From the IMG/VR virus record IMGVR_UViG_3300037010_002844, positions 64,001 through 128,000 of that record: a stretch of DNA of 64,000 nucleotides; one strand, 5' to 3'. Numbering within the stretch: position 1 is the first letter of the stretch; each line of letters starts with the position of its first letter. This document shows, in pieces, positions 10,068 through 48,046 of this stretch. The notes under the pieces were generated by a model. The model worked only from the letters and a program-made list of their open reading frames with translations, made no database searches and was not told the DNA's origin. A program made the translations under genes and the position numbers. This stretch comes from a virus.

Positions 10068-11198
10068 TTACGTGATTTCCCTCAACTTCCAGACCGTCGT
10101 CGACGCGCCAAAGTCGTCCCTCTTGACCTCGGCACAACACAGGATGAAGGGGTCAGGAAGCTCCTTGCCGCCCCAGACAGAAATCTTCGTGGCCTTGCCA
10201 GTGGGTCCAACCGCAAAGATTTGCACATATTCCTTGCCATTGCGGGTCTTCTTCTTGATGCCCGTCACCGGCTTGCCACCCTTCTTTGCAGCAACAGGGG
10301 CCGTGACAAACCAGACGACCGCCGTGTCACCGTGCTCCAGGTCGTCAATGCTATTGACGCCCTTCTTCTCCAAGGCAGCCAAGATTTCGATGTCAATCAT
10401 GGCGGTGACGTCCAAAGCACCGAAGACGTCGACCATATTTTGAGCACGTTCAGAAGACGACCAGTCCTCGATGTCAGCGTAGTCCCTGACCAACTGGTAG
10501 AAGTTCTTAAGGCCCTCGTGCGGGTCAGACTTCGGGTGTCGCTTGATCAACGCCCCGTGATCGATGTCGACCTCTTCGGTGACCTCGACGCCCTTGCGCT
10601 TCTTGGTCACGGTCTCCACGTGAGAACCGAAGAGGACCTCGTGCATGTGATGATAGTTGTTGAAGACCTTGCCTTCGCCCACGATGTCCATACTGCCGAA
10701 GGCACCGATCTTGACCAGGGCCTCCATCGCCTTCTTGTTGAACTTGCTGTGTTTCCACTCGAAGTTGTCATCCCACAGCAACTCCTCGATAGTGTTGTAG
10801 GGACGGTTGGCCATGATCTCTTCGACCGCCGAGTCGCCGACACCCTTGCAGGACGTCATCGACGGCATCAACTTCTTGCCGGGCAGCGCGGTCCACCCGA
10901 GCCCCGCCAGGTTGATGTCGATCGGGACGATCTGATAGCCCAAGGCCTTTACCTCGCTGAACGCCTTAGCACGTTGAGCAGGAGTGTGCGACATGCTTTC
11001 GAGATAGGCACACAGCCATTCCTCCTCGTGATATGTCATCAGCCAGGCGCACCAGAAGCTGTCAATGGCGTATGCCACTGCATGGCTGTTAGACGTCAGT
11101 ATCCCGTTAGCGAGATAGAACTGGTGATCCGGGTGATCGACTTCGAGGTCATAGGTCTGGTGTCGACCCACGGGTGTGATAGACTTGATGTTACTCAT
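10068..11198 (-). CDS. dnaE: DnaE (Pol III alpha) fragment 8 of 8: C-intein 7 plus the C-terminal extein.
   Basis: C-intein 7 at 11088-11198 is MSNIKSITPVGRHQTYDLEVDHPDHQFYLANGILTSN. The extein at 10071-11087 starts SHAVAYAIDSFWCAWLMTYHEEEW, which matches the DnaE KSHAAAYA helix onward. Confidence 0.85.
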   Translation of the reverse strand: MSNIKSITPVGRHQTYDLEVDHPDHQFYLANGILTSNSHAVAYAIDSFWCAWLMTYHEEEWLCAYLESMSHTPAQRAKAFSEVKALGYQIVPIDINLAGLGWTALPGKKLMPSMTSCKGVGDSAVEEIMANRPYNTIEELLWDDNFEWKHSKFNKKAMEALVKIGAFGSMDIVGEGKVFNNYHHMHEVLFGSHVETVTKKRKGVEVTEEVDIDHGALIKRHPKSDPHEGLKNFYQLVRDYADIEDWSSSERAQNMVDVFGALDVTAMIDIEILAALEKKGVNSIDDLEHGDTAVVWFVTAPVAAKKGGKPVTGIKKKTRNGKEYVQIFAVGPTGKATKISVWGGKELPDPFILCCAEVKRDDFGASTTVWKLREIT

Positions 11199-11419
11199 GT
11201 GAGCAGGTCCTTCAACAGGTCTTCGATCGCTCCTGCGTTCGGTTCATCAAGCATTGCTTTAGCATACTCTTCTTCAATGTACTCGTCAGTCGGCTGGAGT
11301 TCAACCTTCGTTTCGCTTTTGCGTCGGTAACGTGCCGCGGCCCGTAACAGTTCGATCGGACTCAGACCCATGCGTTGGGCAATGTCATTCAGTGCGATTT
11401 CAAACGGCGGTCTTTTCAT
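11195..11419 (-). CDS. Small hypothetical protein (possible HTH) inside the intein-7 gap.
   Basis: 74 aa, with IALNDIAQRMGLSPIELLRAAARY. Overlaps the neighbouring genes at both ends. Confidence 0.4.
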   Translation of the reverse strand: MKRPPFEIALNDIAQRMGLSPIELLRAAARYRRKSETKVELQPTDEYIEEEYAKAMLDEPNAGAIEDLLKDLLT

Positions 11420-12449
11420 ACGCTTTTCCTATCCGATGAACGCCAGGTCGAGGATCTTTCAGGATCTCAAAAAGCTTTTTCAAGCAATCAGGTTCGAAGC
11501 GACCGCCATCCTTGTATGAGAACTGATCGTAAGAAATTCGAATGAGTGTCCAATCATGTTTAGTGATGTAATCATCAAGCATTGCATCCATGCACTTCAC
11601 TCGTTCAAAATTATCCTCGCCTTTAATACGTGCATTAAAATGGATGATTCCATCAAATTCAACATAAATGTGTCTTGATCGATCGGCAATGTCAACTTGC
11701 TTTCTTTTAGATTTGTTTGGAAAAGCAACTGACTTGACGACCTGATTATGAACAAAATCATAACCTTCAACGTTTTTCAACAAATCAAACAACGCTAATT
11801 CCGGAATGCTATGCCAAATAGCATGTGCAGCTTTTGTGCACTTTTCGTAGAACTCATCGGGGTTCAACTCACGCCAACGGGCCAGGCGCTCAGCACGTGC
11901 CTTGAGTATCTCAGGCCGGGTTGACGTTAGTCTTGCAACGTCTGATGAACGTTTACGGGCTTCAGGTCGTCGATTAAGTTCTCCCATTAGTTCAGAGCGA
12001 CGTTTCCTCTCGCCCGGATTGCTCGTGATGGCCTCACTGACCGCACGGCCCATCTTTTCCTTGTAGGCAGTCAAATCATCACCGCGTGCCTTCGCTCGTT
12101 TGAGCCAGGCGAAATTCTGCCCACGATGCTTGAAACGCGCTGTCGAGACTTTCGATGTGATTGCGGCAGTCGGGTACGCTTTCAGGTATTCTTCTTTGCT
12201 CATACCATGCGTCCCCGACAAGTGCTTTGCCAGTGCCTTACCCGTGAAGCCACAGACTTGGCATGTGACACTCTCACTGTCACCGAGTATGAATCCTTGG
12301 CACCTAGCTTGGTGTTTTTCGTAGGCCTTCAGGTAGACGAAGAGCCTGCTACATCGGTCACAACGATGCTGAGGCCCCGTTCGGCAATCATCCACAGGGG
12401 CAACATCTCGTTTGTCTCCTTCGTCCTGAACTTGTGATCCCACGTGCAC
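11400..12449 (-). mobile_element. Free-standing homing-endonuclease gene in the intein-7 gap (MucR-like zinc finger plus a DUF559/Vsr-like PD-(D/E)XK domain).
   Basis: CQVCGFTGKALAKHLSGTHGMSKEEYLKAYP resembles the Ros/MucR finger. The C-terminal SIPELALFDLL...QVDIADRSRHIYVEFDGIIH resembles the DUF559/Vsr-like nuclease core. It lies between N-intein 7 and C-intein 7. Confidence 0.65.
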
Positions 12450-13030
12450 TTTACCTTCTCTCCGGTCACCAACTCCACTTCTACCAAGTCTAGCTCACCG
12501 TGGTCGTGTTTTGCAACAACAGGGACGAGGATGTTTTTACCTGAATTCTCATCACGAGACATGACCAGGTCGCCGGGTTCGATGTGTTGAAGCTGCTTTG
12601 TCTCTTTGAACGTGCCGTCTGAAAAAAAGGTATTTACTGGTTCCGAAAAGTACAAACTTTTATTGAAGCCGTAGCCCGCGAAGTACAGAATCTTGTCGTA
12701 GAGGTTGTTGGCCACCTTCTCGGTATAACCGTTGGCGATGCAACCCTTGACGAACCCGTCACGGGTCTCTTGGGCTGCCTTCTTTGCCGCCTCACCGCCC
12801 GAGATGCTGCGCTTCATGATTGCGCGACGGACCTCGTCACACTTGTCCTTCGGGAAGCCGGCAGCCTTCTCGGCGAGTTCCATCACCTGTTCCTGAAAAA
12901 TTATGCAGTTATGCACGAGAAGGCCATTTGCGAAGAAGTTGTTGTTCTTCTTGACCTGGATGTCGTACACAGGCTGTGCAGGAACACGCTTGATCGCACG
13001 GATCTTGACGGGAACTACGTCAGGCATCAC
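12329..13030 (-). CDS. dnaE: DnaE fragment 7: C-intein 6, extein, N-intein 7.
   Basis: C-intein 6 at 12908-13030 ends PVYDIQVKKNNNFFANGLLVHN. The extein at 12659-12907 is CIIFQEQVMELAE...DEVRRAIMKRS...ILYFAGYGFNK. N-intein 7 at 12332-12658 is SLYFSEPVNTFFSDG...CTWDHKF. Confidence 0.85.
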   Translation of the reverse strand: MMPDVVPVKIRAIKRVPAQPVYDIQVKKNNNFFANGLLVHNCIIFQEQVMELAEKAAGFPKDKCDEVRRAIMKRSISGGEAAKKAAQETRDGFVKGCIANGYTEKVANNLYDKILYFAGYGFNKSLYFSEPVNTFFSDGTFKETKQLQHIEPGDLVMSRDENSGKNILVPVVAKHDHGELDLVEVELVTGEKVKCTWDHKFRTKETNEMLPLWMIAERGLSIVVTDVAGSSST

Positions 13031-14856: not shown

Positions 14857-15333
14857 TCACGTCAATCCACGAGCTTCGTAACCACTGCTAGACCCAATCA
14901 ACTCGTCGTCTTCGGTTAGGTGCTGTGCCTCAACCCACCCGCGATTCTTCGTCAAGATGGGATGATCAGCGGTGCAGACAAGCTTCTTGCCGTCGTCGAA
15001 CACGAGCTCGATGCACTCCTTGGGTCCTTGGTCGTAAACGACGTCGACGACTGATGTGGTGAACTGCTGCTTGACTTCATCGAAGACCGTCACCTCGTCA
15101 CCGACATGGACGTCCTTGATCAACTTGTACGAGTCATCGCCCATCAGCACTGCCGTGTCCTGGTCGACGCACTGGAAGATGCCTGCCCACTTGCCTTTCT
15201 CGTAGACCTCGTAAGGTTTGGGATCGGTGAAATCAATGACGGCCGGGTGCATGTGCTGCTCGAACCAGGTCTTGATGTCATTGAATGATACCGCATTTGT
15301 ATGTGCGTCAACGTTAGCAACGACTTTTGCCAT
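14857..15333 (-). CDS. dnaE: DnaE fragment 5: degenerate C-intein stub, extein, N-intein 5.
   Basis: MAKVVANVDAHTN is a decayed block-G-like stub. The extein at 15172-15294 is AVSF...DPKPYEVYEKGKWAGIFQ. N-intein 5 at 14860-15171 is CVDQDTAVLMGDD...CTADHPILTKNRGWVEAQHLTEDDEL. Confidence 0.8.
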   Translation of the reverse strand: MAKVVANVDAHTNAVSFNDIKTWFEQHMHPAVIDFTDPKPYEVYEKGKWAGIFQCVDQDTAVLMGDDSYKLIKDVHVGDEVTVFDEVKQQFTTSVVDVVYDQGPKECIELVFDDGKKLVCTADHPILTKNRGWVEAQHLTEDDELIGSSSGYEARGLT

Positions 15334-15351: not shown

Positions 15352-17151
15352 TCACAGGTCCATAACGTACACCGCGTTGGAGCAACCAAAGATCTTAAAA
15401 AGCCTGTGTTCCATCGCCATCTCTTCTTGTGATGCGATCCCCGGAATCGCCCTGACAGCAAATCTATCGATACGATTTTGTCCGTCCGTCCACCAAAACC
15501 TAGGCTGCGTCATGTGATCAAATCTAAAACCAGATAGTTCATACGCCCGGCCAGTGCCACCCAACCTCATGTCACGGTATGTGATCATTTTTTGGTAACC
15601 ATGCTCACGTGACCAATCCCTGGCAGCGTTGATCAACCGCGACATGCCTCCAACGACGATGGTATCGCGGGCCGTTGAAACCCGCGCCAATTCAATTGTC
15701 TTAGATCCCCACTTAGTCTGCTGGTGCGGTTTTCGCAATGTCAATGCACAAATAATGTTTCCAGCAATGTCCTCTAGCCAGAACGAATGCGACGAAGGAG
15801 TGTTTCCATCGAGGTGATTGTTCGCCATGAACTGAGCGGTGATGGCTGGACGACCGCTGCGAAGATGTAGCTTTCGTGCCATCACGCGAGTAGCAAGACC
15901 AAGCTTTACCCTGATCATGCTTTTGATGATGTTTTTCTTTACATCATGGTGCCATTCATCGTCGAAGATATGTAGCAACGACACACCACGCTCAAGAGCG
16001 CGAGTCGACTTGTCTTGGTGATACGATGGTGGAGTACCGGTCGCCTCACTGTGCCAATAGACACCGTTGCACTCGATGGCAATCCTTCCGTTACCTGACA
16101 CGATGTCCAGCTCATAAGGCGCGATTGACTGTCTGTCGTTGGCGATGGCGTTCGAATCGAGCTTGACGAAGAAATCGAACACCTCACGATGCCAGCGAGA
16201 GAAATTAGCCGGGTAGCACGTTGAACACACCTTTCCCTTGTAAAGGACGTTAAAGGGAACAATATCAGGTACGTTACAACTGACGCATGTCACATGCACC
16301 GGTGTTGAGTATCCAGCAAACTCAAATTTTTCGATGTTCCACCTCGACCGCAGTGCATCAACTCGCCGTTCGACCTCTTCGAGAGACAACCGAAAAGGAG
16401 AGTTAGTGCCGTTCTCGATAAGGCGTTTTCTAGTCTCGATGATCGAACGTTTGATATCTTCAGAATTAGCGTTCCGAGACCAATGATTCAAGCGAACGCC
16501 TTCGCCGATCCGTTCTGATCGCCGTTTGATCCTATCGTCAGTTTCTGACGTCTGACCGTGCTGCGTCCAGTGTTTTTCTACTTGCCATTTTTCAGTCAAT
16601 GCTCGAGAGATGTTATGCGCAGCTCTTGTGATAGATTCATTATTTTCTTTAGTTTGTCCTGTTCTCCAGTGCCCGTGTTTTTTGATGAAATCACGACAAC
16701 CTTGTGCGGCCCTTCGAACCGATTCAGACGTTGTTTCTGACAGCCCCTTGTTCCATGCAGGCAATGATTTTGATTTCCGGCTAAGCGCACCTCTTACTTG
16801 AGAGTTCTTCTTGCTACAAACTCCACAGAGACGTTCATATCCCGTTTGAAAGGTCATGAACTTGACCGGCCCTGAACACTGAACGCACGGTCCAGGGTGC
16901 TCTCGAAAAAGAAGGTACGCAGCCTCCGCATTGAGCCCGTGCTTTTTAAGGAGATGTGCGCGGAGCGAATTTAGGCTAGCTTTTCGCAATGGATCATTGC
17001 ACTGTGGGCACCTCGAAGGACACGATGTCATCGCCGGGCCCGAGCTCCCTCGCAAGGATGGTGCCCCTGTTGCTGGTGACGATTCGTTGGTCGCCGTAGA
17101 CGCCTCGTGTCGTTCCATCGTCGAGTTGGATCTCAAACCACCCTCTTTCAT
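15352..17151 (-). mobile_element. Free-standing homing-endonuclease gene (zinc finger, NUMOD3-like repeats, Vsr-like nuclease, conserved C-terminal domain) at junction 4.
   Basis: Contains CPQCNDPL...HLLKKH, WNKGLSETTSESV and TGQTKENNESI repeats, and YELDIVSGNGRIAIECNGVYWHSE. The C-terminus is YRDMRLGGTGRAYELSGFRF...FWWTD...IFGCSNAVYVMDL. It is a paralog of 17837..19570. The true start is probably an internal Met (17118 or 17031), because the track start overlaps fragment 4. Confidence 0.75.
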
Positions 17152-17851
17152 GTCGTTCCTTTTTGATGATGAGCTCGATGGCGCGCTCGATGAGCCGCAT
17201 CGTTTCTAGACCTAGGAGGTCGTACTTGATGAACTCTCCGATCTTCTCAAGGTGTTTATAATTTACGCCCTCGACCCAAGGTGACTGTGGCTCGCGGACG
17301 CCGGCCTTGCCTTTGGACGTCACCAAAGGCATCTTGTTGGGCAAATCGTCTGCAATCAGCACACCACCCGCGTGACGACCGAGACTACGATTCTGCTTGA
17401 AGAGGATCTTGATCGACTCGGCGACGACCGGGTACTTCTCAATGAAGCCGCGAAACGACGGGCTGACCGGCTGCTTACACTCTGGGCTACAGCCCTGGCA
17501 GATGGACTTCGACTCCGGGCCCTTAGGAGCCCTGCAGTGGAAGGCCATGGCCTCATCGTAGGTCAAGACGAACAGATTCTTGTCGTCGCCTTCCTTCATC
17601 GTCGCCTTACGGACCTCGTCCTCGACGGTCCGCGTGGCAGCGTTGGTCTCCTCGAATGGGATGCCGTAGAACTTGCCGATATCCTTTACAAGCGTTTTTA
17701 GTTTGAAACAGTTATAATTGCTGATGGGAACGACGTTTTCCCACCCAAAAAAGTTTCGAAGTTCATCAAGAACCTCATCTCGCCTGGCAAGATCGGTGTT
17801 GTGAACAACGACGCTCTTGTTGGACGCCAAAAATGAATGAACGACCATCAC
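16994..17851 (-). CDS. dnaE: DnaE fragment 4: very short C-intein 3, palm/fingers extein, degenerate N-intein remnant.
   Basis: Starts MVVHSFLASNKSVVVHN (17798-17848, ATG at 17848). The extein is TDLARRDEVLDELRNFFGWENVV...SLGRHAGGVLI...IKYDLLGLETMRLIERA. The tail at 16997-17140 is WFEIQLDDGTTRGVYGDQRIVTSNRGTILARELGPGDDIVSFEVPTVQ. Confidence 0.85.
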   Translation of the reverse strand: MMVVHSFLASNKSVVVHNTDLARRDEVLDELRNFFGWENVVPISNYNCFKLKTLVKDIGKFYGIPFEETNAATRTVEDEVRKATMKEGDDKNLFVLTYDEAMAFHCRAPKGPESKSICQGCSPECKQPVSPSFRGFIEKYPVVAESIKILFKQNRSLGRHAGGVLIADDLPNKMPLVTSKGKAGVREPQSPWVEGVNYKHLEKIGEFIKYDLLGLETMRLIERAIELIIKKERHERGWFEIQLDDGTTRGVYGDQRIVTSNRGTILARELGPGDDIVSFEVPTVQ

Positions 17852-19570
17852 ATGAATCCTAACTCAACTACAGTTGAATTTACATGCGCTCGTTGTGGTC
17901 GAAACCACGAAACGCTACGAGCATTGAAGATCCACGAGGCACGACACAGGCGAGAAGACGCCAGGCCTCCCAAACAGGTGTCAACTTACGCGTGTCCGTG
18001 GTGTGAGGCGTCATATGACAGCGGGCGTAAGTTGACATTGCACTGCACAAAAACGCACCAAAAATCACCCGTCGTTGTGTATGAAACAAGGTACCCAGGG
18101 TGCAGGAAGACGTGCATCGATTGTTGCGACTGGGTCAGGTTCATCGATCAAGAAAAAGGATACCCCGAACGGTGTCCACGTTGTAGCCGAAAACACGCAT
18201 ACGCGTCCAAGGGCACCTCGTCATGGAACAAAGGCCTGACGAAAGACAATGACGAACGCATGTCAGCCAGTGCTGCAAACATGCGAGCTCACTACAAGGA
18301 ACACGGTCACCACAACTCCGACAAGACAAAGGAAAACAACGAAAGCCTTAAACAAAAGGCGGCAAAAATCAGCGACAGCCTGCGGAGGTATTATGCAACG
18401 CACAGCGGCTGGTCACTTGGCCTGACAAAGGATACGTCTAGCATCATTGAATCTCGCAGTAAGAAGATCAGCGCTTCGTTGAAAGGACGATTCTTTAGCG
18501 ACGTAACGCTTGAAAAAATGCGCAAGGCAAAGTTGCTGACGCACGACGAGGTACAAAAACGCCTCAAAGAAAAGCAGCTTAAACTCATTGACGAATATGT
18601 CGATACTGTCACCAAAGCGCGCATCGAATGCACGATATGTTCAACAATATTTGAGCGTTGCGTTGGCGCAGTGTTCAACAACGAGGCCAAGTGTCCCACC
18701 TGCTTTCCGCCTTGGTCAGACAAAACGAGCAGGTGGCAACAGGACGTCTACGCATTTATCCAGACGCTGGCACCTGACGCAGTCCTTAGCGATCGTAAGA
18801 CGCTCGGCGGAATGGAGCTCGACATACTCATTCCATCGCGCATGTTTGCCATCGAGTGCAATGGCCTATACTGGCACAGCGAGGCCGCCAATAGATTTGA
18901 GCACGATCACGCGGAAAAGAAGAGATTGCTGTCCCTCAAAGCCGGCGTATCGCTTTTCACGTTATTTGAGGATGAGTGGCGCGACAAACGACCGATAATC
19001 GAAAGCATGTTGCGCCATCGCCTTGGGTTTTCTACCAAAGTCGATGCGCGTAAGTTGAAAGCAGAACGCTGCGAGCCCGAAGAAGTTCGAGAATTCATCA
19101 ATCAGTGCCACCTCGACGGTCACGTGAGGGCCCAATTTGCCGTGCGATTGGTAACCTCATCGGGCGAAATCGTAGGCGCCTGCAGCCTTAGGTGGGCACG
19201 AAATGGGGCAGACAGAACGACGATTGAGATCGCTCGCCTGTGCTTCAAGCTTGGCACACATGTACGAGGCGGGGTGTCAAAATTGCTATCAAAGGCAAAA
19301 GCTATAGCAAGAGAAAACAATGCAGCGAGGTTGATGTCTTACTCAGACAATCGCTTGGGAGGAAACGGTTATGCCACCTCAGGCATGAAGTTCAACGGTA
19401 CCACAGTCGCTCGCTTCTGGTGGACTGACTTCATGCATCGTTACGACAGGTTCAAGTACCGAGCCAACAAGAAGCAAGGTCTAACAGAAAAACAGGTAGC
19501 GGAGGCTGCCGGCGTTTATCGCATCTATGGCTGTAGCAACTCTCGCTACGTCTTAGACGTCACAGCGTGA
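17837..19570 (+). mobile_element. Homing-endonuclease gene on the opposite strand inside the intein-3 gap (C2H2-like finger, NUMOD3-like repeats, Vsr-like nuclease, conserved C-terminal domain).
   Basis: Contains CARCGRNHETLRALKIHEARH, then WNKGLTKDNDERM and SDKTKENNESL and GLTKDTSSIIESRSKKIS, then MELDILIPSRMFAIECNGLYWHSE. The C-terminus is YSDNRLGGNGYATSGMKF...FWWTD...IYGCSNSRYVLDV. Its ATG at 17837 overlaps, head to head, the ATG at 17848 of fragment 4. Confidence 0.8.
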
Positions 19571-19872
19571 CGCTAATGTCATCGTCAAACTTTGAGGACG
19601 CATTTTCTTTGAGCCAGAAGATGGCGTCAATTGTGCGCTCGTCGGCGTCGGCGTCATCGCACGACGTAGCCCCATAGTATGGGGGCCAAATCGTGCTCAA
19701 ACCCTTTAACGCGCAGTTTGACCTGACAATCTTGAAATTCAGGATTTTCTGCAGCTCTCGTCTGAGCTATTCTTTCCAGGCCAGACACTATCACATCATC
19801 TGCTCGGCAGAATCGCCGTTGTCTGTAAGCTGCACCGCATCAACGTTGCTCGGACACGGTCCCAACTCCAGC

Positions 19873-20610
19873 TCAAATTTCATAGTTGCGCTCGCTGTGG
19901 TCTGTTCTTCTCTTAGACGCGCACCAATCGCTGCAAAAATTGTCTCCTTCGCCACACGCAAGGAACGTGCCAGGAATGACGCCCATGCAATAACCGACGT
20001 CATGTGATGGATCACCTCCACTTAGAATGGACGTATTGAACGGTACCACGTGGAATCTGTGATCGTCTTCAACAGTCAGGTCGACGTATCTAGCGTTGGA
20101 AGAGCCCCAACCACCGTGCTCGATCGATACGACCTCAACGCTGCCGCATGATGCCATCAATTCATCTCCGACCTTAAGGTCGCGGCAGTACACGATGACG
20201 CCGTCAGCTCTGACAAATTTGTGACCGGGCACCACCAAAATGTGGCCCAACGTACCATCATTGGCCCTAACTCTGACCCAGACAGCGTCCTCGAATGGCC
20301 GCAAATTTCTAGCATAGGTCGCAGTTACTGCGTGTGGCATTCCATCGCCTCCCAGGACGACGTCGCCGACAATGATGTCAACAGCTCGCTTATGAGTGCC
20401 GTCTGTCATGACGACAAGATGGTCCTCGTGGACGCAGTCGATATCAGGAGCACCAGAGTTATGTGTCAGCACCCAATCGCTATCGTTGTTGGACACCCAA
20501 AACGTATGCTGGCCTTCGACCTCGATGTCGATGAGTTCTACACTTTCATCGACAACCTCGATAGCTTCAATTTTGGCCGTGCTTGCTGATGAGATGTTGG
20601 GTTCCTGCAT
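19873..20610 (-). CDS. dnaE: DnaE fragment 3: C-intein 2, 7-aa extein, long N-intein 3.
   Basis: C-intein 2 at 20458-20610 ends ELIDIEVEGQHTFWVSNNDSDWVLTHN. The extein SGAPDID is at 20437-20457. N-intein 3 runs down from 20436 as CVHEDHLVVMTDG...VVPGHKF...ARYVDLTVEDDHRF (to about 20053). About 60 unrelated codons follow. Confidence 0.8.
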   Translation of the reverse strand: MQEPNISSASTAKIEAIEVVDESVELIDIEVEGQHTFWVSNNDSDWVLTHNSGAPDIDCVHEDHLVVMTDGTHKRAVDIIVGDVVLGGDGMPHAVTATYARNLRPFEDAVWVRVRANDGTLGHILVVPGHKFVRADGVIVYCRDLKVGDELMASCGSVEVVSIEHGGWGSSNARYVDLTVEDDHRFHVVPFNTSILSGGDPSHDVGYCMGVIPGTFLACGEGDNFCSDWCASKRRTDHSERNYEI

Positions 20611-21532
20611 AGTCCCTGTGCTCTAGATTGGCAATCGTATGGTACAAACCTTGTCGACGAAGTTCACCATAGAAGTCATTCATGTACACGACGTCGATGC
20701 GCTGACCAGACGCCACAACGACTTCCCGTGAACGTGCGTTTGAGTTAAGCAACTTTGAGAAACGCGATTTGCCTTCTCGCACACCTTTCAACTCCACGTA
20801 TCGGTCCTCATCACTGAACCAAAAGTCTGGAGTGTAACACTTCTCTTTGCCATCGATGACAACATGGAAAGACCTATGTTCATAGAATGGCATCTTACCG
20901 AGGTGCAAGCAATATCTGTAGTAGTCGGCTTCGAACGAGCTCTTGAAGTACGGGCTGTTTAGGATGTCGGAACGAAAACACGAGCGTCCGTTCACATGTG
21001 AAGCAACCATATCACGTGACTGTGCCTCGCGGGTGCACCGTTTGGAACAGAACCGCGGCACGTAGCTCTTCTTGGTGACGATCGGTTCGCTACAAACTTC
21101 GCATACCAACGTGTGGCGGTCAAACCTCGATGCAGCGAAACATTTGGGTGAACAGAACCTGCGATTGACGTTCTTCGTTGAGAAAGTGCCTAGACACTGT
21201 ACACATGTCAGTGTACGGAGCTCATTCTTTGTCAGCGCTTTCGCAGTGTACTTGTGCCTGCACGCATTCGAACATAGTTTTCTGTTGTTGTGACACTTTG
21301 GAACGTAGAACTCATCGCCGTACTCGACGCACGTCTTCACAAGCCTCGAGGGCATGGGAGCGTGTGACATCAGCTTCCTGTGAGCGACGGCACACTCATC
21401 AGTGCAGTACGGGCGATGGAGCCTACTACCAGAACCCTTGCAGTTGGGCTCATAGTTGAACTGAAACATAATACCACAGTGTTTACACTGTTTCTCAATG
21501 ATGCTCATAGTGGTACGTGTACAGCTCGTCAC
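20567..21532 (-). mobile_element. Free-standing homing-endonuclease gene in the intein-2 gap (four CxxC...FCSxxC zinc modules plus a T7 endonuclease I-like PD-(D/E)XK domain).
   Basis: The repeats are CKHCG...RPYCTDEC, CVEYG...RKLCSNAC, CVQCL...RRFCSPKC and CEVCS...PRFCSKRC. The C-terminal KCYTPDFWFSDEDRYVELKGVREGKSRFSKL matches the T7 endo I YTPDF...FVETKG core as recalled. Confidence 0.7.
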
Positions 21533-21992: not shown

Positions 21993-22076
21993 GATATGCG
22001 TTCGCTCTCTTCATGTAAGCCTTGAGATCCCTGTCTAATAGACATTTGACGAGGATCAGGTAAACTTAGTTGAGTT

Positions 22077-44404: not shown

Positions 44405-47400
44405 TCACCCGCATTTGCTGTTTCCGCAGTTCATGCAAGTAACGCATCCCTGCTGATAGGCGAGCGACGTCGAGGCACAGATCGGGCAACACTTTTCCTG
44501 CGTTGCCTTGGTCCCATCCACGATGTAGTGCTTGCTCAACGTTCGCGCGATAACCGTCGAGAACGAGAACAGATCGCTGTGCTTGTCCTTGCGGAGCTGC
44601 TCGACGACAAGGTGAACTGGTACTCCATGTCGAAGTGTCATCGACAAGGTTCGAGTGTGCGCTCCGTACAACGGATTGTCGAAGAGGTTGACAATGTCCT
44701 TATAGAGAAGGAAATTGTCGTCCAGGTCGACGCGGAGGTTGTACGTGGACACCCCGTCAGCGTTCTTGCCGTTCTTGATGAGGACGCCCTTCTTGGCCTT
44801 CCTCGGGACTTCAACCTGTTCTGACAGTCCGGCGAACAGCTCGTAAGGCTTGCCGTTCATGAGGCCCACGAAGACCAGGTACTTCTCACCCTTGATCGAA
44901 ACGTGGTGAATGTCACACTCCAGCTCCTTCGGACGCTTCAGAGAGTGAGACTCGGCGATATTCTTGGGTTGGTCCGCCGCTGTCTTCTTCTCGTCCTTGA
45001 TGAGGACGCCATCACGAGAACCATCTCGATAGATGGTGACGCCCTTGCAACCAGTCTCCCAACCGCGCATGTAGATCTGCTTCACCACATCGACCGGCGT
45101 GTCACTCGGAATGTTGGTGGTGTTCGAGATGGAGTGACAGACCCACTTCTGAGCTGCGGCCTGGACGTCGATCTTCTTGACCCAGTCGATGTCATTCGAC
45201 GTGGCACCGAAGTAAGGCGACTTTTCCACGTCGGTCTCACCAGTGACGTCCATCCACTTCTTGAATCCGTGGTGATAGACCGTGTACTCCTGCCACTTGT
45301 CGCCCATGGCGTCAACGAAGTCGACACGAGCATCCAAGTCATTCGGATTGATCTTCTTCCTTCGCTTGTAGCTCAGGAGGAAGGCGGGCTCGCAGCCAGA
45401 TGTAGTCTGGGTCAAGATGGAGACAGAGCCAGCTGGCGCTGTCGTCGTCAAGGCGATGTTGCGACGTCCATAGAGACGATACTGATCACGGAGCTCATGA
45501 TCAGCGTCCATCACTTGTTCAATGAAAGGATGTCCCTCTTCCACCTTGTGGGAAAAAATCGGGAAGGGACCACGATCACGTGCCATCTCAACAGTCGAGC
45601 GGTAGGCACCCAACGCGAGGCCCTTATAGATCTGCTCAGTGACGTTGATAGACTCGTCCGAACCGTACTTGATGTTGAGGTAGGCCAAGGCATCGCCCAA
45701 GGCAGTGATGCCCAAGCCGGTGCGACGACCATTGATTGCAGTGTTGCGGATCTTGGTCCATAGCTCGATTTCGGGCCGCTTCACGTCAGCGGGCTCAGGG
45801 TCATTCTCGATCTTCTGCATGATTCGATCAATGGCCTCGAGCTCCAGGTCGACGAGATCGTCCATCAACTTCTGCGCCTTCTTAACAACATCGTTGAAGC
45901 GCACGAAGTCAAAACTGGCGTGAGGAGTAAATGGATCTCTGACGAAGCGAGCGAGGTTGACGAGAAGCAAACGACATGAATCGTAAGGCGACAGCGTAAT
46001 CTCACCGCATTGTTCGCTAGCGATTATTACGTTTGCTTGATTTTGGAACTGTACAAGCTTTTCGTCACCAACATACATGCACAGTGTGTGCTCTCCGTCG
46101 ACAGTGCCGTTGTACACGTCTTCGACACCCGCGGGTTCAACGCTGATCACGCGGTGATTGTGCAATGCCGCGGCCTCTTTCAGGGCAGACCAGGACGCAA
46201 AACCGTTTTTGGTACCGATTCGTGCCGGCACATCCAAGCGTCGACATTCGGCAACCCACTCTCTTCCCAAGGGCTCTCTACCCAACGTAAACCTAAGTGA
46301 GGTAAAGGCGTCAAGTTGCTGTTTTCGCGTTACTTCTGCACGATCAGCGTGAAGCTTCTTCAGGTTCTCTGCCCGTGCAACGTTCTTATTGGCCTTCCTG
46401 TTTGCGTAGAGGTTGGAACACGAATGTGAGCAGAATGCCTGTTCACGTCGGCAGTACGGCAGCGCGAACATTTCGTTGCACCACTCACACGTCCGGTTGA
46501 CGTACAGCTCACCGTCGATCACATCGACATCATAACCTTCTTCAAGGGCCTGAACGTACGTACGTTGAATCCTCGTGTCGAGTTCTGGTGTTGAGATGTC
46601 GACCTCTCGAGCCGCCCAGCACGACAGGTCGTAGAAGCTTCCCAGCTCGCTGCGACGCCAGGCCGAAAACGACATCGGCAGCGACCGTTGTTTAGCGTAA
46701 GCGTACCACTCGTTCAGTGAAACGCGGCGGCCGAGCGACCGGGTCAACCCCAGCACGTGTTGGCGGATGTCATCATTGGTGACGTTGTCATAGGCACGCG
46801 GATTGTTGGCCCCACCGACGCTCTCGCTCATCTTCGCCGAATATTCAGCAAACTTGCCAGCGACTTTATGAGCAACCCAAAGTTGATCGCCATTCAACAG
46901 CTCGTCGACTCGCTTCCGGGATCCGTCACGCATGATCATCGTGTGGTTTCCGGTGGCCTTAAAAGTGTGACCTCCCTCAATGGTCACCTTGAACACAGGA
47001 ACTCCCTTACCGGTAAGCCTAGGATTCCTCATCAGGCGGATGCCAATTTTTCCTGTGGCCTCCTGGTAACAATAGACCGGCAAGTCCTTGCCTTCGTCAG
47101 CTAGCTGCTTGATGGGCACGTAACCCCTTCCGTCAGCGACGGCGATAAGAGTTTCTCCCGTAATGCACGGGTTGGTGCTCGTCGAGCCGTAACCAAACGC
47201 AGCGTAGGCATCTGCTGGCCCGCGGCGCAGGACAGTGTCCCAGAACAGCAAACCGGGTTCAGCAGATTCCCATGCTGCCTGGATGATCTCATGCCACAGT
47301 TGGCGAGCGTCTACCTGTTCCTCGACGATGTGAGGAACGTCTTTGTCAACTGGAAACCGCAGTTGAACCTGCGTACCCGCCTTAACGGCGTTCATGAACT

Positions 47401-48046
47401 CGTCTGTCAAACGAATCGATATGTTGGCGCCCGTGACCTTCTTCTTGTTCTTCTTGATGTTGATGAAGGTGCGAATCTCCGGGTGGTGCACCGACACTGT
47501 CAACATCAGCGCGCCTCGGCGGCCGCCTTGGGCCACCTCGCGACAGGTATTACTGTAGCGCTCCATGAAGATGCCCAGGCCATCGGTGGTGCGGGCAGCG
47601 TTGGCAGTCTCGATACCCTTCGGGCGAATCGTCGAGATGTCAAAACCCACGCCGCCGCGACGCTTCATGATCTGCGCCTGTTCCTGGTCAGTCTTTAGGA
47701 TGCCGCCATAGGAATCATAAGGGCTCTCGATAACGAAGCAGTTGCTCAACGACTGAAACTGGTACGGATTGCCAACTGCCGACATGGGTGATCCCTGTGG
47801 GACCACGTCCCATGAAGAGAAGAGCTCATAGATCTCTTGCTCTGACATGGCGTTCGGATACCGTGTCTCGATGCGAGCAAACTCCCGCGCCTCGCGCCGG
47901 TGCATGTCGTCAGGGGTAGCCTCGTAAATGTTTCCCTTAAGATCCTGCAGCGCATACTTGCCTGCAAAGACCTCACCCGCCAGCTCATCTCCACGAAAAT
48001 ACTCGATCGACGCATCGCGAACGTGCTGATACGTGAAAGTCCTCAT
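44405..48046 (-). CDS. nrdJ: Class II (adenosylcobalamin-dependent) ribonucleotide reductase NrdJ, interrupted by one contiguous intein.
   Basis: N-terminal YFRGDELAGEVFAGKYALQD; GGVGFDISTIRPKG; the active-site TNP[intein]CGEITL; and a C-terminal CCPICAS...CVTCMNCGNSKCG zinc module. Confidence 0.9.
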   Translation of the reverse strand: MRTFTYQHVRDASIEYFRGDELAGEVFAGKYALQDLKGNIYEATPDDMHRREAREFARIETRYPNAMSEQEIYELFSSWDVVPQGSPMSAVGNPYQFQSLSNCFVIESPYDSYGGILKTDQEQAQIMKRRGGVGFDISTIRPKGIETANAARTTDGLGIFMERYSNTCREVAQGGRRGALMLTVSVHHPEIRTFINIKKNKKKVTGANISIRLTDEFMNAVKAGTQVQLRFPVDKDVPHIVEEQVDARQLWHEIIQAAWESAEPGLLFWDTVLRRGPADAYAAFGYGSTSTNPCITGETLIAVADGRGYVPIKQLADEGKDLPVYCYQEATGKIGIRLMRNPRLTGKGVPVFKVTIEGGHTFKATGNHTMIMRDGSRKRVDELLNGDQLWVAHKVAGKFAEYSAKMSESVGGANNPRAYDNVTNDDIRQHVLGLTRSLGRRVSLNEWYAYAKQRSLPMSFSAWRRSELGSFYDLSCWAAREVDISTPELDTRIQRTYVQALEEGYDVDVIDGELYVNRTCEWCNEMFALPYCRREQAFCSHSCSNLYANRKANKNVARAENLKKLHADRAEVTRKQQLDAFTSLRFTLGREPLGREWVAECRRLDVPARIGTKNGFASWSALKEAAALHNHRVISVEPAGVEDVYNGTVDGEHTLCMYVGDEKLVQFQNQANVIIASEQCGEITLSPYDSCRLLLVNLARFVRDPFTPHASFDFVRFNDVVKKAQKLMDDLVDLELEAIDRIMQKIENDPEPADVKRPEIELWTKIRNTAINGRRTGLGITALGDALAYLNIKYGSDESINVTEQIYKGLALGAYRSTVEMARDRGPFPIFSHKVEEGHPFIEQVMDADHELRDQYRLYGRRNIALTTTAPAGSVSILTQTTSGCEPAFLLSYKRRKKINPNDLDARVDFVDAMGDKWQEYTVYHHGFKKWMDVTGETDVEKSPYFGATSNDIDWVKKIDVQAAAQKWVCHSISNTTNIPSDTPVDVVKQIYMRGWETGCKGVTIYRDGSRDGVLIKDEKKTAADQPKNIAESHSLKRPKELECDIHHVSIKGEKYLVFVGLMNGKPYELFAGLSEQVEVPRKAKKGVLIKNGKNADGVSTYNLRVDLDDNFLLYKDIVNLFDNPLYGAHTRTLSMTLRHGVPVHLVVEQLRKDKHSDLFSFSTVIARTLSKHYIVDGTKATQEKCCPICASTSLAYQQGCVTCMNCGNSKCG
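46010..47167 (-). mobile_element. 386-aa intein in the NrdJ TNPCGE active-site motif.
   Basis: Residues 294-679. Starts CITGETLIAVADG, has block B GNHTM, and ends ANVIIASEQ followed by +1 Cys. Internal modules are two homing-endonuclease-associated-repeat-like segments (LGRRVSLNEWYAYAKQRSLPMSFSAWRR; LGREPLGREWVAECRRLDVPARIGTKNGFASWSALKEAA) and one CxxC...FCSxxC zinc module. I saw no LAGLIDADG, HNH or GIY-YIG motif. Confidence 0.8.

Follow-up and report, generated by a model that had tools for sequence, protein, structure and literature searches.

The fractured dnaE gene

We analysed a 64,000-nucleotide stretch of viral DNA (positions 64,001 to 128,000 of IMG/VR record IMGVR_UViG_3300037010_002844; hereafter the window), in which dnaE, the gene for the DNA polymerase III alpha subunit, is interrupted by split inteins. 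Our subject is the third of these, intein 3, in which the C-terminal fragment (C-fragment) has 17 residues. The contig is phage-like and encodes a UvsX-like recombinase, a DnaB-like helicase and a ribonucleotide reductase. On the minus strand, from 23762 to 10068, dnaE consists of eight collinear pieces with seven junctions between them. Most of the junctions are canonical split inteins; three or four of the gaps contain a free-standing endonuclease gene. Translation of the open reading frames (ORFs) gave C-fragments of 34-51 residues for the other inteins in the window, the range already reported in a first-pass annotation of this DNA. Collinear pieces, all on the minus strand, with an endonuclease gene between the intein-3 halves, make up the "fractured gene" arrangement known from ocean metagenomes (PMC2677866).

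All coordinates that the first-pass annotation had given for intein 3 and its gap were reproduced when the window was re-translated. In the order of transcription of dnaE, the features are as follows (an arrow marks a splice junction here and below).

20458-20610, minus strand: intein 2 C-fragment, 51 residues, MQEPN...WVLTHN (translation; first part of ORF 19873-20610)
20437-20457, minus strand: DnaE extein SGAPDID, 7 residues, catalytic PDID motif region, between inteins 2 and 3 (translation)
20053-20436, minus strand: core of the intein 3 N-terminal fragment (N-fragment), with Cys1, blocks A and B and the complete first half of block F (translation, Pfam, AlphaFold2, Foldseek)
19990-20052, minus strand: N-fragment extension HVVPFNTSILSGGDPSHDVGY, 21 residues, with F-x-V-V-P-F-(N/D)-V, an acidic loop and G-Y (alignment)
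19873-19989, minus strand: Cys-rich tail CMGVIPGTFLACGEGDNFCSDWC...NYEI and stop, in the closest relatives P0001-P0004 only (alignment)
17837-19570, plus strand, opposite to dnaE: free-standing homing endonuclease gene, 577 residues (PHROG 3339 "homing endonuclease", E = 3.5e-59)
17798-17848, minus strand: intein 3 C-fragment MVVHSFLASNKSVVVHN, 17 residues (18 with GTG 17851), with the block F His-x-Phe and block G VVVHN (translation, upstream stop)
16994-17797, minus strand: C-extein, the next DnaE piece, starting at Thr+1 (TDLARRDEVLDELRNFFG...) and ending in the junction-4 tail and a stop (Pfam DNA_pol3_alpha, E = 7.9e-13)

The identical intein-3 N-fragment protein occurs on a 309-kb metagenome contig of the Joint Genome Institute and on eight other contigs, that is, on nine independent contigs from different samples. 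Searches of 50,697 GenBank phage records with blastn and tblastn returned zero DNA matches, and the DnaE matches were at most 32% identical and all lacked the intein; thus no cultured relative is at hand.

The two fragments of intein 3

The N-fragment is encoded in the ORF 19873-20610 (minus strand), which reads through the intein-2 C-fragment and SGAPDID into intein 3 at the Cys codon 20436-20434. The N-terminus of the intein-2 C-fragment was also found in alleles free of intein 3 (P0012-P0015). With about 149 residues plus a variable tail, the intein-3 N-fragment contains block A (CVHEDHLVVM), block B (LGHILVVPGHKF) and the first half of block F (YVDLTVEDDHRF, 20088-20053, minus strand). It matches Pfam PT-HINT at 35.8 bits (cut-off 27.7), and its core was modelled by AlphaFold2 with a predicted local distance difference test score (pLDDT) of 80-90. 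When the model was compared with the PDB by Foldseek, the top 30 or more matches were inteins or HINT domains with target-normalised TM-scores of 0.72-0.79. The best were 6riz/6qaz (gp41-1), 6bs8, 6riy and 2lwy, with values up to 0.79 for gp41-1. We therefore regard the predicted intein/HINT fold of this part of the N-fragment as solid.

The catalytic residues expected of a class-1 intein are in place. Cys1 comes directly after PDID; all 11 close N-fragments have it, and in a wider set it comes after (P)D(I/V)D in each of the 36 recognised N-fragments. The block-B His (VVPxHKF) and the block-F Asp of VDLTV are likewise invariant.

The next dnaE piece (ORF 16994-17851, minus strand) opens with (V)MVVHSFLASNKSVVVHN↓TDLARRDEV, in which GTG 17851 and ATG 17848 are the candidate starts and 17800-17798 is the terminal Asn codon. 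An in-frame stop lies four codons upstream of the GTG (stop-VRIH-VM...), so the C-fragment has at most 18 residues from a standard start and a longer one is impossible; the upstream alternative start that had been named as a possible refutation is thereby excluded. An AGGA lies 8 nucleotides before the ATG, much as in other pieces of this dnaE. The block-F His-x-Phe (H-S-F) sits in this peptide. Translation and comparative data thus bear out the original proposal of a C-fragment of about 17 residues and a split between blocks F and G.

Strands that belong to a canonical C-fragment are found on the N side of the break, as SVEVVSIEHGG...YVDLTVEDD. We take this segment to correspond to Npu IKIATRKYLGKQNVYDIGVERD, and the 17-residue peptide to (D)HNFALKNGFIASN. 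When ...VEDD and HSFLASNKSVVVHN are joined, the product aligns without gaps to residues 70-138 of the Clostridium thermocellum BIL domain (2lwy), through the terminal VHN, and it also aligns to the HINT domain of 8w20 (YDLTVDGFHSYYVS..VLVHN). The first-pass annotation had seen a canonical block F-G recreated at this joint, and these alignments agree with it. PI-SceI (...DSDHQFLLANQVVVHN) can also be aligned to the C-fragment peptide. Because the joined sequence follows the C-terminal half of HINT domains without a gap, the break can be placed in the β10-β11 loop, a turn inside block F (motif C2). Canonical S0 split inteins break between the N4 and C2 motifs and have C-fragments of about 33-54 residues; the 17-residue C-fragment of intein 3 lies outside this definition.

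Conservation of the split in relatives

A search with the N-fragment ORF recovered ten relatives of 43-87% identity, all of which end in ...VD(L/I)TVE(D/G)DH(R/K/T)F-x-(V/I)(V/I)PF(N/D/S/T)...G-Y. The same search recovered intein-free alleles that read ...SGAPDID↓TDLADRDKV, or overall PDID↓(S/T)DLADRDKV, which is exactly the predicted ligation product and defines the insertion site of intein 3. At the DNA level the intein-free site reads ...CCDGAYATHGAY↓ACNGAYYTN...

The contigs of six relatives could be compared across the whole junction. In each, the downstream DnaE piece begins with a peptide of 17-18 residues, with the consensus M-x-x-H-S-F-L-x-x-(G/N)-x-S-V-V-V-H-N↓T-D:

L001: MTIHSFLAKNYSVVVHN↓T
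L002: MLKRHSFLQKGHSVVVHN↓T
L004: MVAVHSFLKTGKSVVVHN↓T
L005: MMLHSFLSKGHSVVVHN↓T
L006: MIVHSFLKSGKSVVVHN↓T
L007: MIDHSCLAKGHSVVVHN↓T

In L002, L005, L006 and L007 a stop closes the reading frame 5-6 codons upstream of the ATG. The invariant residues of the peptide are written with three to five synonymous codons across the seven loci (Leu as CTA, CTG, CTT, TTA or TTG; Ser as AGC, AGT or TCT), and therefore it is the translated peptide that is under purifying selection.

Searching with the ORF of the C-piece extended the set to about 105 DnaE pieces, about 45 of which open with an intein-3-type peptide; most of the others have no intein 3. The peptides come in two flavours, HSFLxxGxSVVVHN↓T in 33 database proteins and HSFKKKN(F/Y)WVGSHN↓S/C/T in about ten (HSFKKKNFWVGSHN↓S/C/T). 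The motif VVVHN↓T is invariant in the first flavour; the second has SHN↓S/C/T in its place. On the N side, a phmmer search of 1.84 billion representative sequences gave 67 hits, about 36 of them DnaE N-fragments at (P)D(I/V)D↓C with identities down to 25-30%. All of these stop 2-70 residues past F-x-(V/I)-(V/I)-P-F-(D/N)-V, and none of the 67 hits is a contiguous relative that reaches block G (HN↓T). Two distant pairs, L014 (...SNSHTFQCVPFDV... with MLVTTIHSFKKKNFWVGSHN↓SD) and L015 (...EGSSSFRVIPYDV... with ...RVHSHKSAGSWLGSHN↓SDF), have the same architecture as the window.

In the window and in eight further loci, then, the two fragments lie in separate ORFs, each fused to its extein. The class-1 catalytic positions Cys1, block-B His, block-F Asp, terminal HN and Thr+1 are all present and invariant. 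This conservation and the lack of a contiguous relative indicate that the split is old, obligate in this intein lineage and maintained. The possibility that related genomes would reveal a dead pseudo-junction was also considered; instead, six loci and about 45 homologues have kept the peptide, with synonymous codon variation. Intein 3 belongs to a sizeable, previously undescribed family in the DnaE genes of uncultivated phages.

The extension of the N-fragment

The first-pass annotation had recognised blocks A and B and a block-F-like sequence in the N-fragment, which it took to end at about 20053. The blocks are there; the fragment does not end at block F, since a conserved extension (HVVPFN...GY, 20052-19990) follows. 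P139, F140 and Y156 of this extension are invariant in 11 homologues, and the PF is present in nearly all of the 36 N-fragments. The extension is acidic, with a mean net charge of -2.1 over the 16 residues after PF (36 sequences), and the N-terminal half of the C-fragment is basic, with a mean of +1.4 (43 sequences). These opposite charges are reminiscent of the electrostatic steering known for canonical split inteins.

A short duplication at the insertion point had also been proposed, on the strength of DHRF in the N-fragment and VHSF in the C-fragment. The likeness does not go beyond H-x-F. A hidden Markov model built from 33 C-fragments gave no significant hit in any N-fragment, at DHRF or elsewhere, so the duplication lacks statistical support. 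The two His residues are also kept to very different degrees. Of 36 N-fragments, 21 have the N-side His and the others Ser, Thr, Lys or Ala at that position. Of 47 C-fragments, about 45 retain the peptide His, and P0022 (NSF) and P0028 (DSF) do not. From this we infer that the peptide supplies the catalytic block-F His.

The extension may help to catch the short peptide; it might serve as a handle, or as a pseudo-hairpin that can be displaced. More specifically, it could be a built-in pseudo-C-fragment hairpin that caps the near-complete HINT fold and keeps the N-fragment soluble until the basic peptide displaces the hairpin or zips onto it, an idea that we put forward tentatively and hold to be possible rather than probable. 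Canonical split inteins assemble by "capture and collapse". If the pseudo-hairpin exists, assembly would proceed by strand exchange, a distinct route. It would be a natural answer to the low affinity of very short C-fragments, in a split intein optimised by evolution and with a C-fragment that can be synthesised as a 16-mer.

Beyond the extension, the Cys-rich tail has four Cys residues with zinc-knuckle-like spacing. It has no family match, is disordered in the AlphaFold2 model and is absent from other N-fragments. A MAFFT alignment had raised the possibility of a degenerate third copy of the C-fragment in this tail (VIPGTFLACGEG against VVHSFLASNKS). It was rejected, as the hidden Markov model of 33 C-fragments finds nothing significant there.

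The endonuclease gene in the gap

The inverted 577-residue endonuclease gene that had been noted between the intein-3 halves is confirmed by its ORF and by the PHROG 3339 match. Signals that would make the protein Vsr-like are weak (Pfam REase_MTES_1575, E = 0.0036, below the cut-off; I-Bth0305I, 3r3p, E = 0.8), and its other sequence matches in the PDB are zinc-finger noise. It is 32% identical to the 599-residue endonuclease at junction 4 (15352-17151), which is encoded on the same strand as dnaE. The domain mix is unusual for a homing endonuclease: C2H2-type zinc fingers and NUMOD-like repeats at the N-terminus, and in the C-terminal third (residues ~400-560) a match to Mom-like DNA-modification and GNAT proteins (PHROG 1384, E = 1e-10; Pfam Acetyltransf_1, E = 0.008).

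According to the first-pass annotation, the endonuclease and dnaE starts overlap head to head by 12 nucleotides. This holds in the window for the longest endonuclease ORF and the dnaE ATG (15 nucleotides to the GTG), and it depends on the choice of start: the in-frame endonuclease ATG at 17852, chosen by the gene caller on a sister contig (572 residues), would abolish the overlap. Nor is the overlap conserved, as the starts are 19 nucleotides apart in L001 and roughly 290-410 in L007 and L004. Any dnaE transcript that reads through the gap would be antisense to the endonuclease gene, which is correct as a matter of logic.

Inverted orthologues occupy the intein-3 gap in L001 (45% identity), L004 (59%), L007 (47%) and L005 (two ORFs). 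Several are decaying: the gene in L005 (11617-13258, minus strand) is broken into ORFs of 348 and 135 residues, and those in L004 (8531-9835, minus strand) and L007 (4084-5403, minus strand) are N-terminally truncated. The gaps of L002 and L006 have no endonuclease, and hold 5.6 kb of small same-strand genes and a DnaJ-like gene, respectively; in L014 and L015 the endonucleases are unrelated and encoded on the dnaE strand. The inverted orientation is thus ancestral to one subclade and is neither universal nor required. The endonuclease decays and is lost in the usual cycle, and the split outlasts it. Splicing would not depend on the endonuclease, since in relatives it is gone or has been replaced.

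Other junctions and inteins in the window

Junction 4 (16994-17151 and 15295-15333, both minus strand, with the 599-residue endonuclease gene 15352-17151, minus strand, between) does not look like a splicing intein. Its upstream piece ends in RHERGWFEIQLDDGTTRGVYGDQRIVTSNRGTILARELGPGDDIVSFEVPTVQ and a stop; the likeness of this end to an N-fragment is confined to the block-B half, and Cys1 or Ser1 is missing. The downstream piece opens with MAKVVANVDAHTN↓AVSFNDIK, in which HN is absent and the junction residue is Ala. Conservation in L005, L006, L007 and L014 covers the N-side tail but not the C-side peptide, which varies. Junction 4 may be a non-covalent docking module derived from a HINT domain.

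Intein 1 is split by a gap of only 84 bp (21993-22076) with no endonuclease gene between its halves, as would be expected of a fractured junction from which the endonuclease has been lost completely. The last dnaE intein (12329-12560 and 11088-11198, both minus strand, with a 349-residue ORF at 11400-12449, minus strand, between) appears to use Ser1 (GFNK↓SLYFSEPV...), and its C-fragment ends in GILTSN↓SHAVAYA, with Ser as the penultimate residue, not His. In the large subunit of ribonucleotide reductase (44405-48046, minus strand, 1213 residues) there is an intein-like, contiguous insertion, from about residue 305 to 653, with a match to Pfam Intein_splicing that stays below the cut-off (E = 4.3e-6). 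Because this insertion is contiguous, the same genome has both split and apparently unsplit inteins.

Proposed mechanism and alternatives

We think it likely that intein 3 is a functional, naturally split class-1 intein at the DnaE site PDID↓T, with its break in the β10-β11 turn. Nearly the whole fold would come from the N-fragment, with Cys1, the His of block B and the Asp of block F, as well as the acidic extension. The C-fragment, fused to the next DnaE piece, would add the His of block F (HSF), the two final strands and the catalytic His-Asn, after which Thr+1 follows. In this scenario the basic peptide, translated separately, would dock on the N-fragment with help from the acidic extension, and the completed active site would carry out canonical trans-splicing, which would join ...PDID to TDLARR... 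and restore the palm motif of the polymerase. The inverted Vsr-like homing endonuclease would be a selfish element that probably made or exploited the break. No segment of the intein is missing, because the N-fragment already holds everything up to block F, and we count the complementary charges of the extension and the N-terminal half of the peptide (-2.1 against +1.4) in favour of this proposal.

Some observations weigh against it. Three residues before the invariant block-B His there is a Val instead of the usual Thr of T-x-x-H. AlphaFold2 did not dock the peptide in either of two models. The first comprised the whole N-fragment, the peptide and the extein, with an alignment of N-fragment homologues that had no rows over the peptide; the tail and the peptide had pLDDT <50, and the extension, with short strands, 50-66. 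In the second, with the N-fragment cut at G-Y and fused to the peptide, residues 135-176 had pLDDT <50. Because no alignment rows covered the peptide, we regard the missing docking as uninformative rather than negative. A scan of 16900-20700 for sigma-70 promoters and terminators found 1 promoter-like site against 2.5 in shuffled sequences, and no promoter could be assigned to the C-piece, the start of which abuts or overlaps the divergent endonuclease start; with fewer sites than in the shuffles, the scan says nothing about expression. Finally, non-covalent assembly seems to be tolerated in this polymerase, because junction 4 appears without catalytic residues.

The effective break could also lie later than we propose, as in engineered S11 inteins. 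The F-H-V-V-P-F strand of the N-fragment would then take the place of β11, only SVVVHN would enter the core, and MxxHSFLxxG together with the N-extension would form an extra intermolecular β-sheet that serves as an affinity handle. This would make sense of the H-x-F and the conserved hydrophobic strand that the N-fragment retains right after block F, and of the model of the N-fragment alone, which reaches TM-scores of 0.72-0.79 to complete mini-inteins and has predicted strands at F140-I144 and P150-H152. The complementary charges suit it as well, and C-fragments of six residues do work in engineered S11 inteins (PMC11766414). However, about 15 of 36 N-fragments have another residue in place of the N-side His, and the peptide His persists in about 45 of 47 C-fragments, which argues that the peptide supplies the block-F His; HSFLASNKSVVVHN is in register with a canonical block F-G, and the extension itself was modelled at low confidence. 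On balance we consider a later effective break unlikely, while it deserves to be kept in mind.

It is less probable still that the junction is catalytically dead and that its fragments only associate non-covalently, as a dimerisation module that holds the DnaE pieces together in the manner of junction 4 or of the split NrdA of phage Aeh1. Junction 4 has lost the position-1 nucleophile, the HN dipeptide and the +1 nucleophile and is conserved nevertheless, and a fragmented phage enzyme with non-covalent assembly is documented (PMC3045599). A pure docking module would not need catalytic residues, though, and junction 4 itself shows how fast they are lost when unneeded. At intein 3 the class-1 residues (Cys1, block-B His, block-F Asp, HN and Thr/Ser/Cys+1) are invariant or nearly so across lineages of 25-60% identity, and the codons of HN↓T vary synonymously. 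We give very little credence to the idea that the short C-fragment is an artefact of annotation or assembly and that the real one is longer, by way of an upstream start, a frameshift or a third piece in the gap. Small ORFs of 30 and 46 residues are called after the N-fragment on sister contigs, and an upstream in-frame GTG in L004 adds six residues. Against this, the window, L002, L005, L006 and L007 all have an in-frame stop 4-6 codons upstream, identical proteins occur on nine independent contigs from different samples, and the content of the gap is unrelated between loci (endonuclease, DnaJ-like genes, 16 small genes).

Comparison with known split inteins

Trans-splicing by intein 3, as we propose it, has a parallel in artificial constructs. 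In Ssp DnaE (IntN144/IntC16) and Npu DnaE (IntN123/IntC15), cuts at β10-β11 left active trans-splicing (PMC2664965). The break is in the same loop, just before the block-F H-x-F, and the C-fragments of 15-16 residues likewise hold the H-x-F and the last two strands; the remark in the first-pass annotation that very short C-fragments are known from engineered split inteins is matched by these two. The engineered pairs, however, were derived from a canonically split cyanobacterial intein at another DnaE site and have no N-extension, whereas intein 3 is natural, conserved and evolutionarily old. S11 inteins (Ssp GyrB, DnaX, Ter DnaE3), with a C-fragment of six residues, resemble intein 3 in their C-proximal cut and in an N-fragment that is a nearly complete intein. 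All of them synthetic, they have the cut one strand closer to the C-terminus, and they are either slow or low in affinity. A 2025 review treats such C-proximal S11 splits as synthetic (PMC11766414).

Among natural systems, the fractured genes of Dassa et al. 2009 (PMC2677866), which include three DnaE loci, are similar in organisation: a phage replication enzyme, pieces that keep their order and orientation, and split halves that flank a free-standing Vsr-like endonuclease gene. The natural split inteins then known, except for one terminase intein, break between N4 and C2 (S0) and have C-fragments of 33-54 residues. Intein 3 differs in that it breaks inside or after C2 and leaves 17 residues. 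Its endonuclease is also on the opposite strand; the paper has gene pieces that retain their orientation, and we found no statement there on the orientation of the endonuclease. The "fractured gene" model can be extended by this locus: a homing endonuclease, even an inverted one, can probably break an intein outside the position of the endonuclease domain, and the break outlives the endonuclease.

The cyanobacterial split DnaE inteins (Ssp, Npu) are also class 1 with Cys1 and also lie in the catalytic subunit of DNA polymerase III. They differ in their insertion site, their S0 split (102-123 + 36 residues), the distant loci of their halves and the lack of an endonuclease. Later work from the Mootz laboratory, in 2023 and 2026, lists as natural split sites S0, S1 (VidaL, PolB16) and S2 (AceL and GOS TerL) (PMC10189870, PMC13014065). 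AceL-TerL, GOS-TerL, VidaL and PolB16 OarG share with intein 3 a natural split away from the endonuclease position, a metagenomic, phage-like source and one fragment short enough for synthesis. In these four the short piece is the N-fragment (15-37 residues; S1, S2), and intein 3 is the mirror case. In the open-access literature up to 2026 we found no report of a natural C-proximal intein split.

Protein ligation, segmental labelling and semisynthesis rely heavily on split inteins, and a C-fragment of a size suited to peptide synthesis permits C-terminal labelling. C-fragments this short have so far come only from artificial cutting. Inteins that were split artificially tend to be slower and poorer at splicing than natural ones (PMC13014065), but Npu IntC15, an engineered one, is robust (PMC2664965). 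The family to which intein 3 belongs provides dozens of variants to screen, and its N-fragment extension may account for the capture of a 17-mer. To the natural sites S0, S1 and S2, intein 3 and its relatives in uncultivated phages would add a C-proximal one, at the β10-β11 loop.

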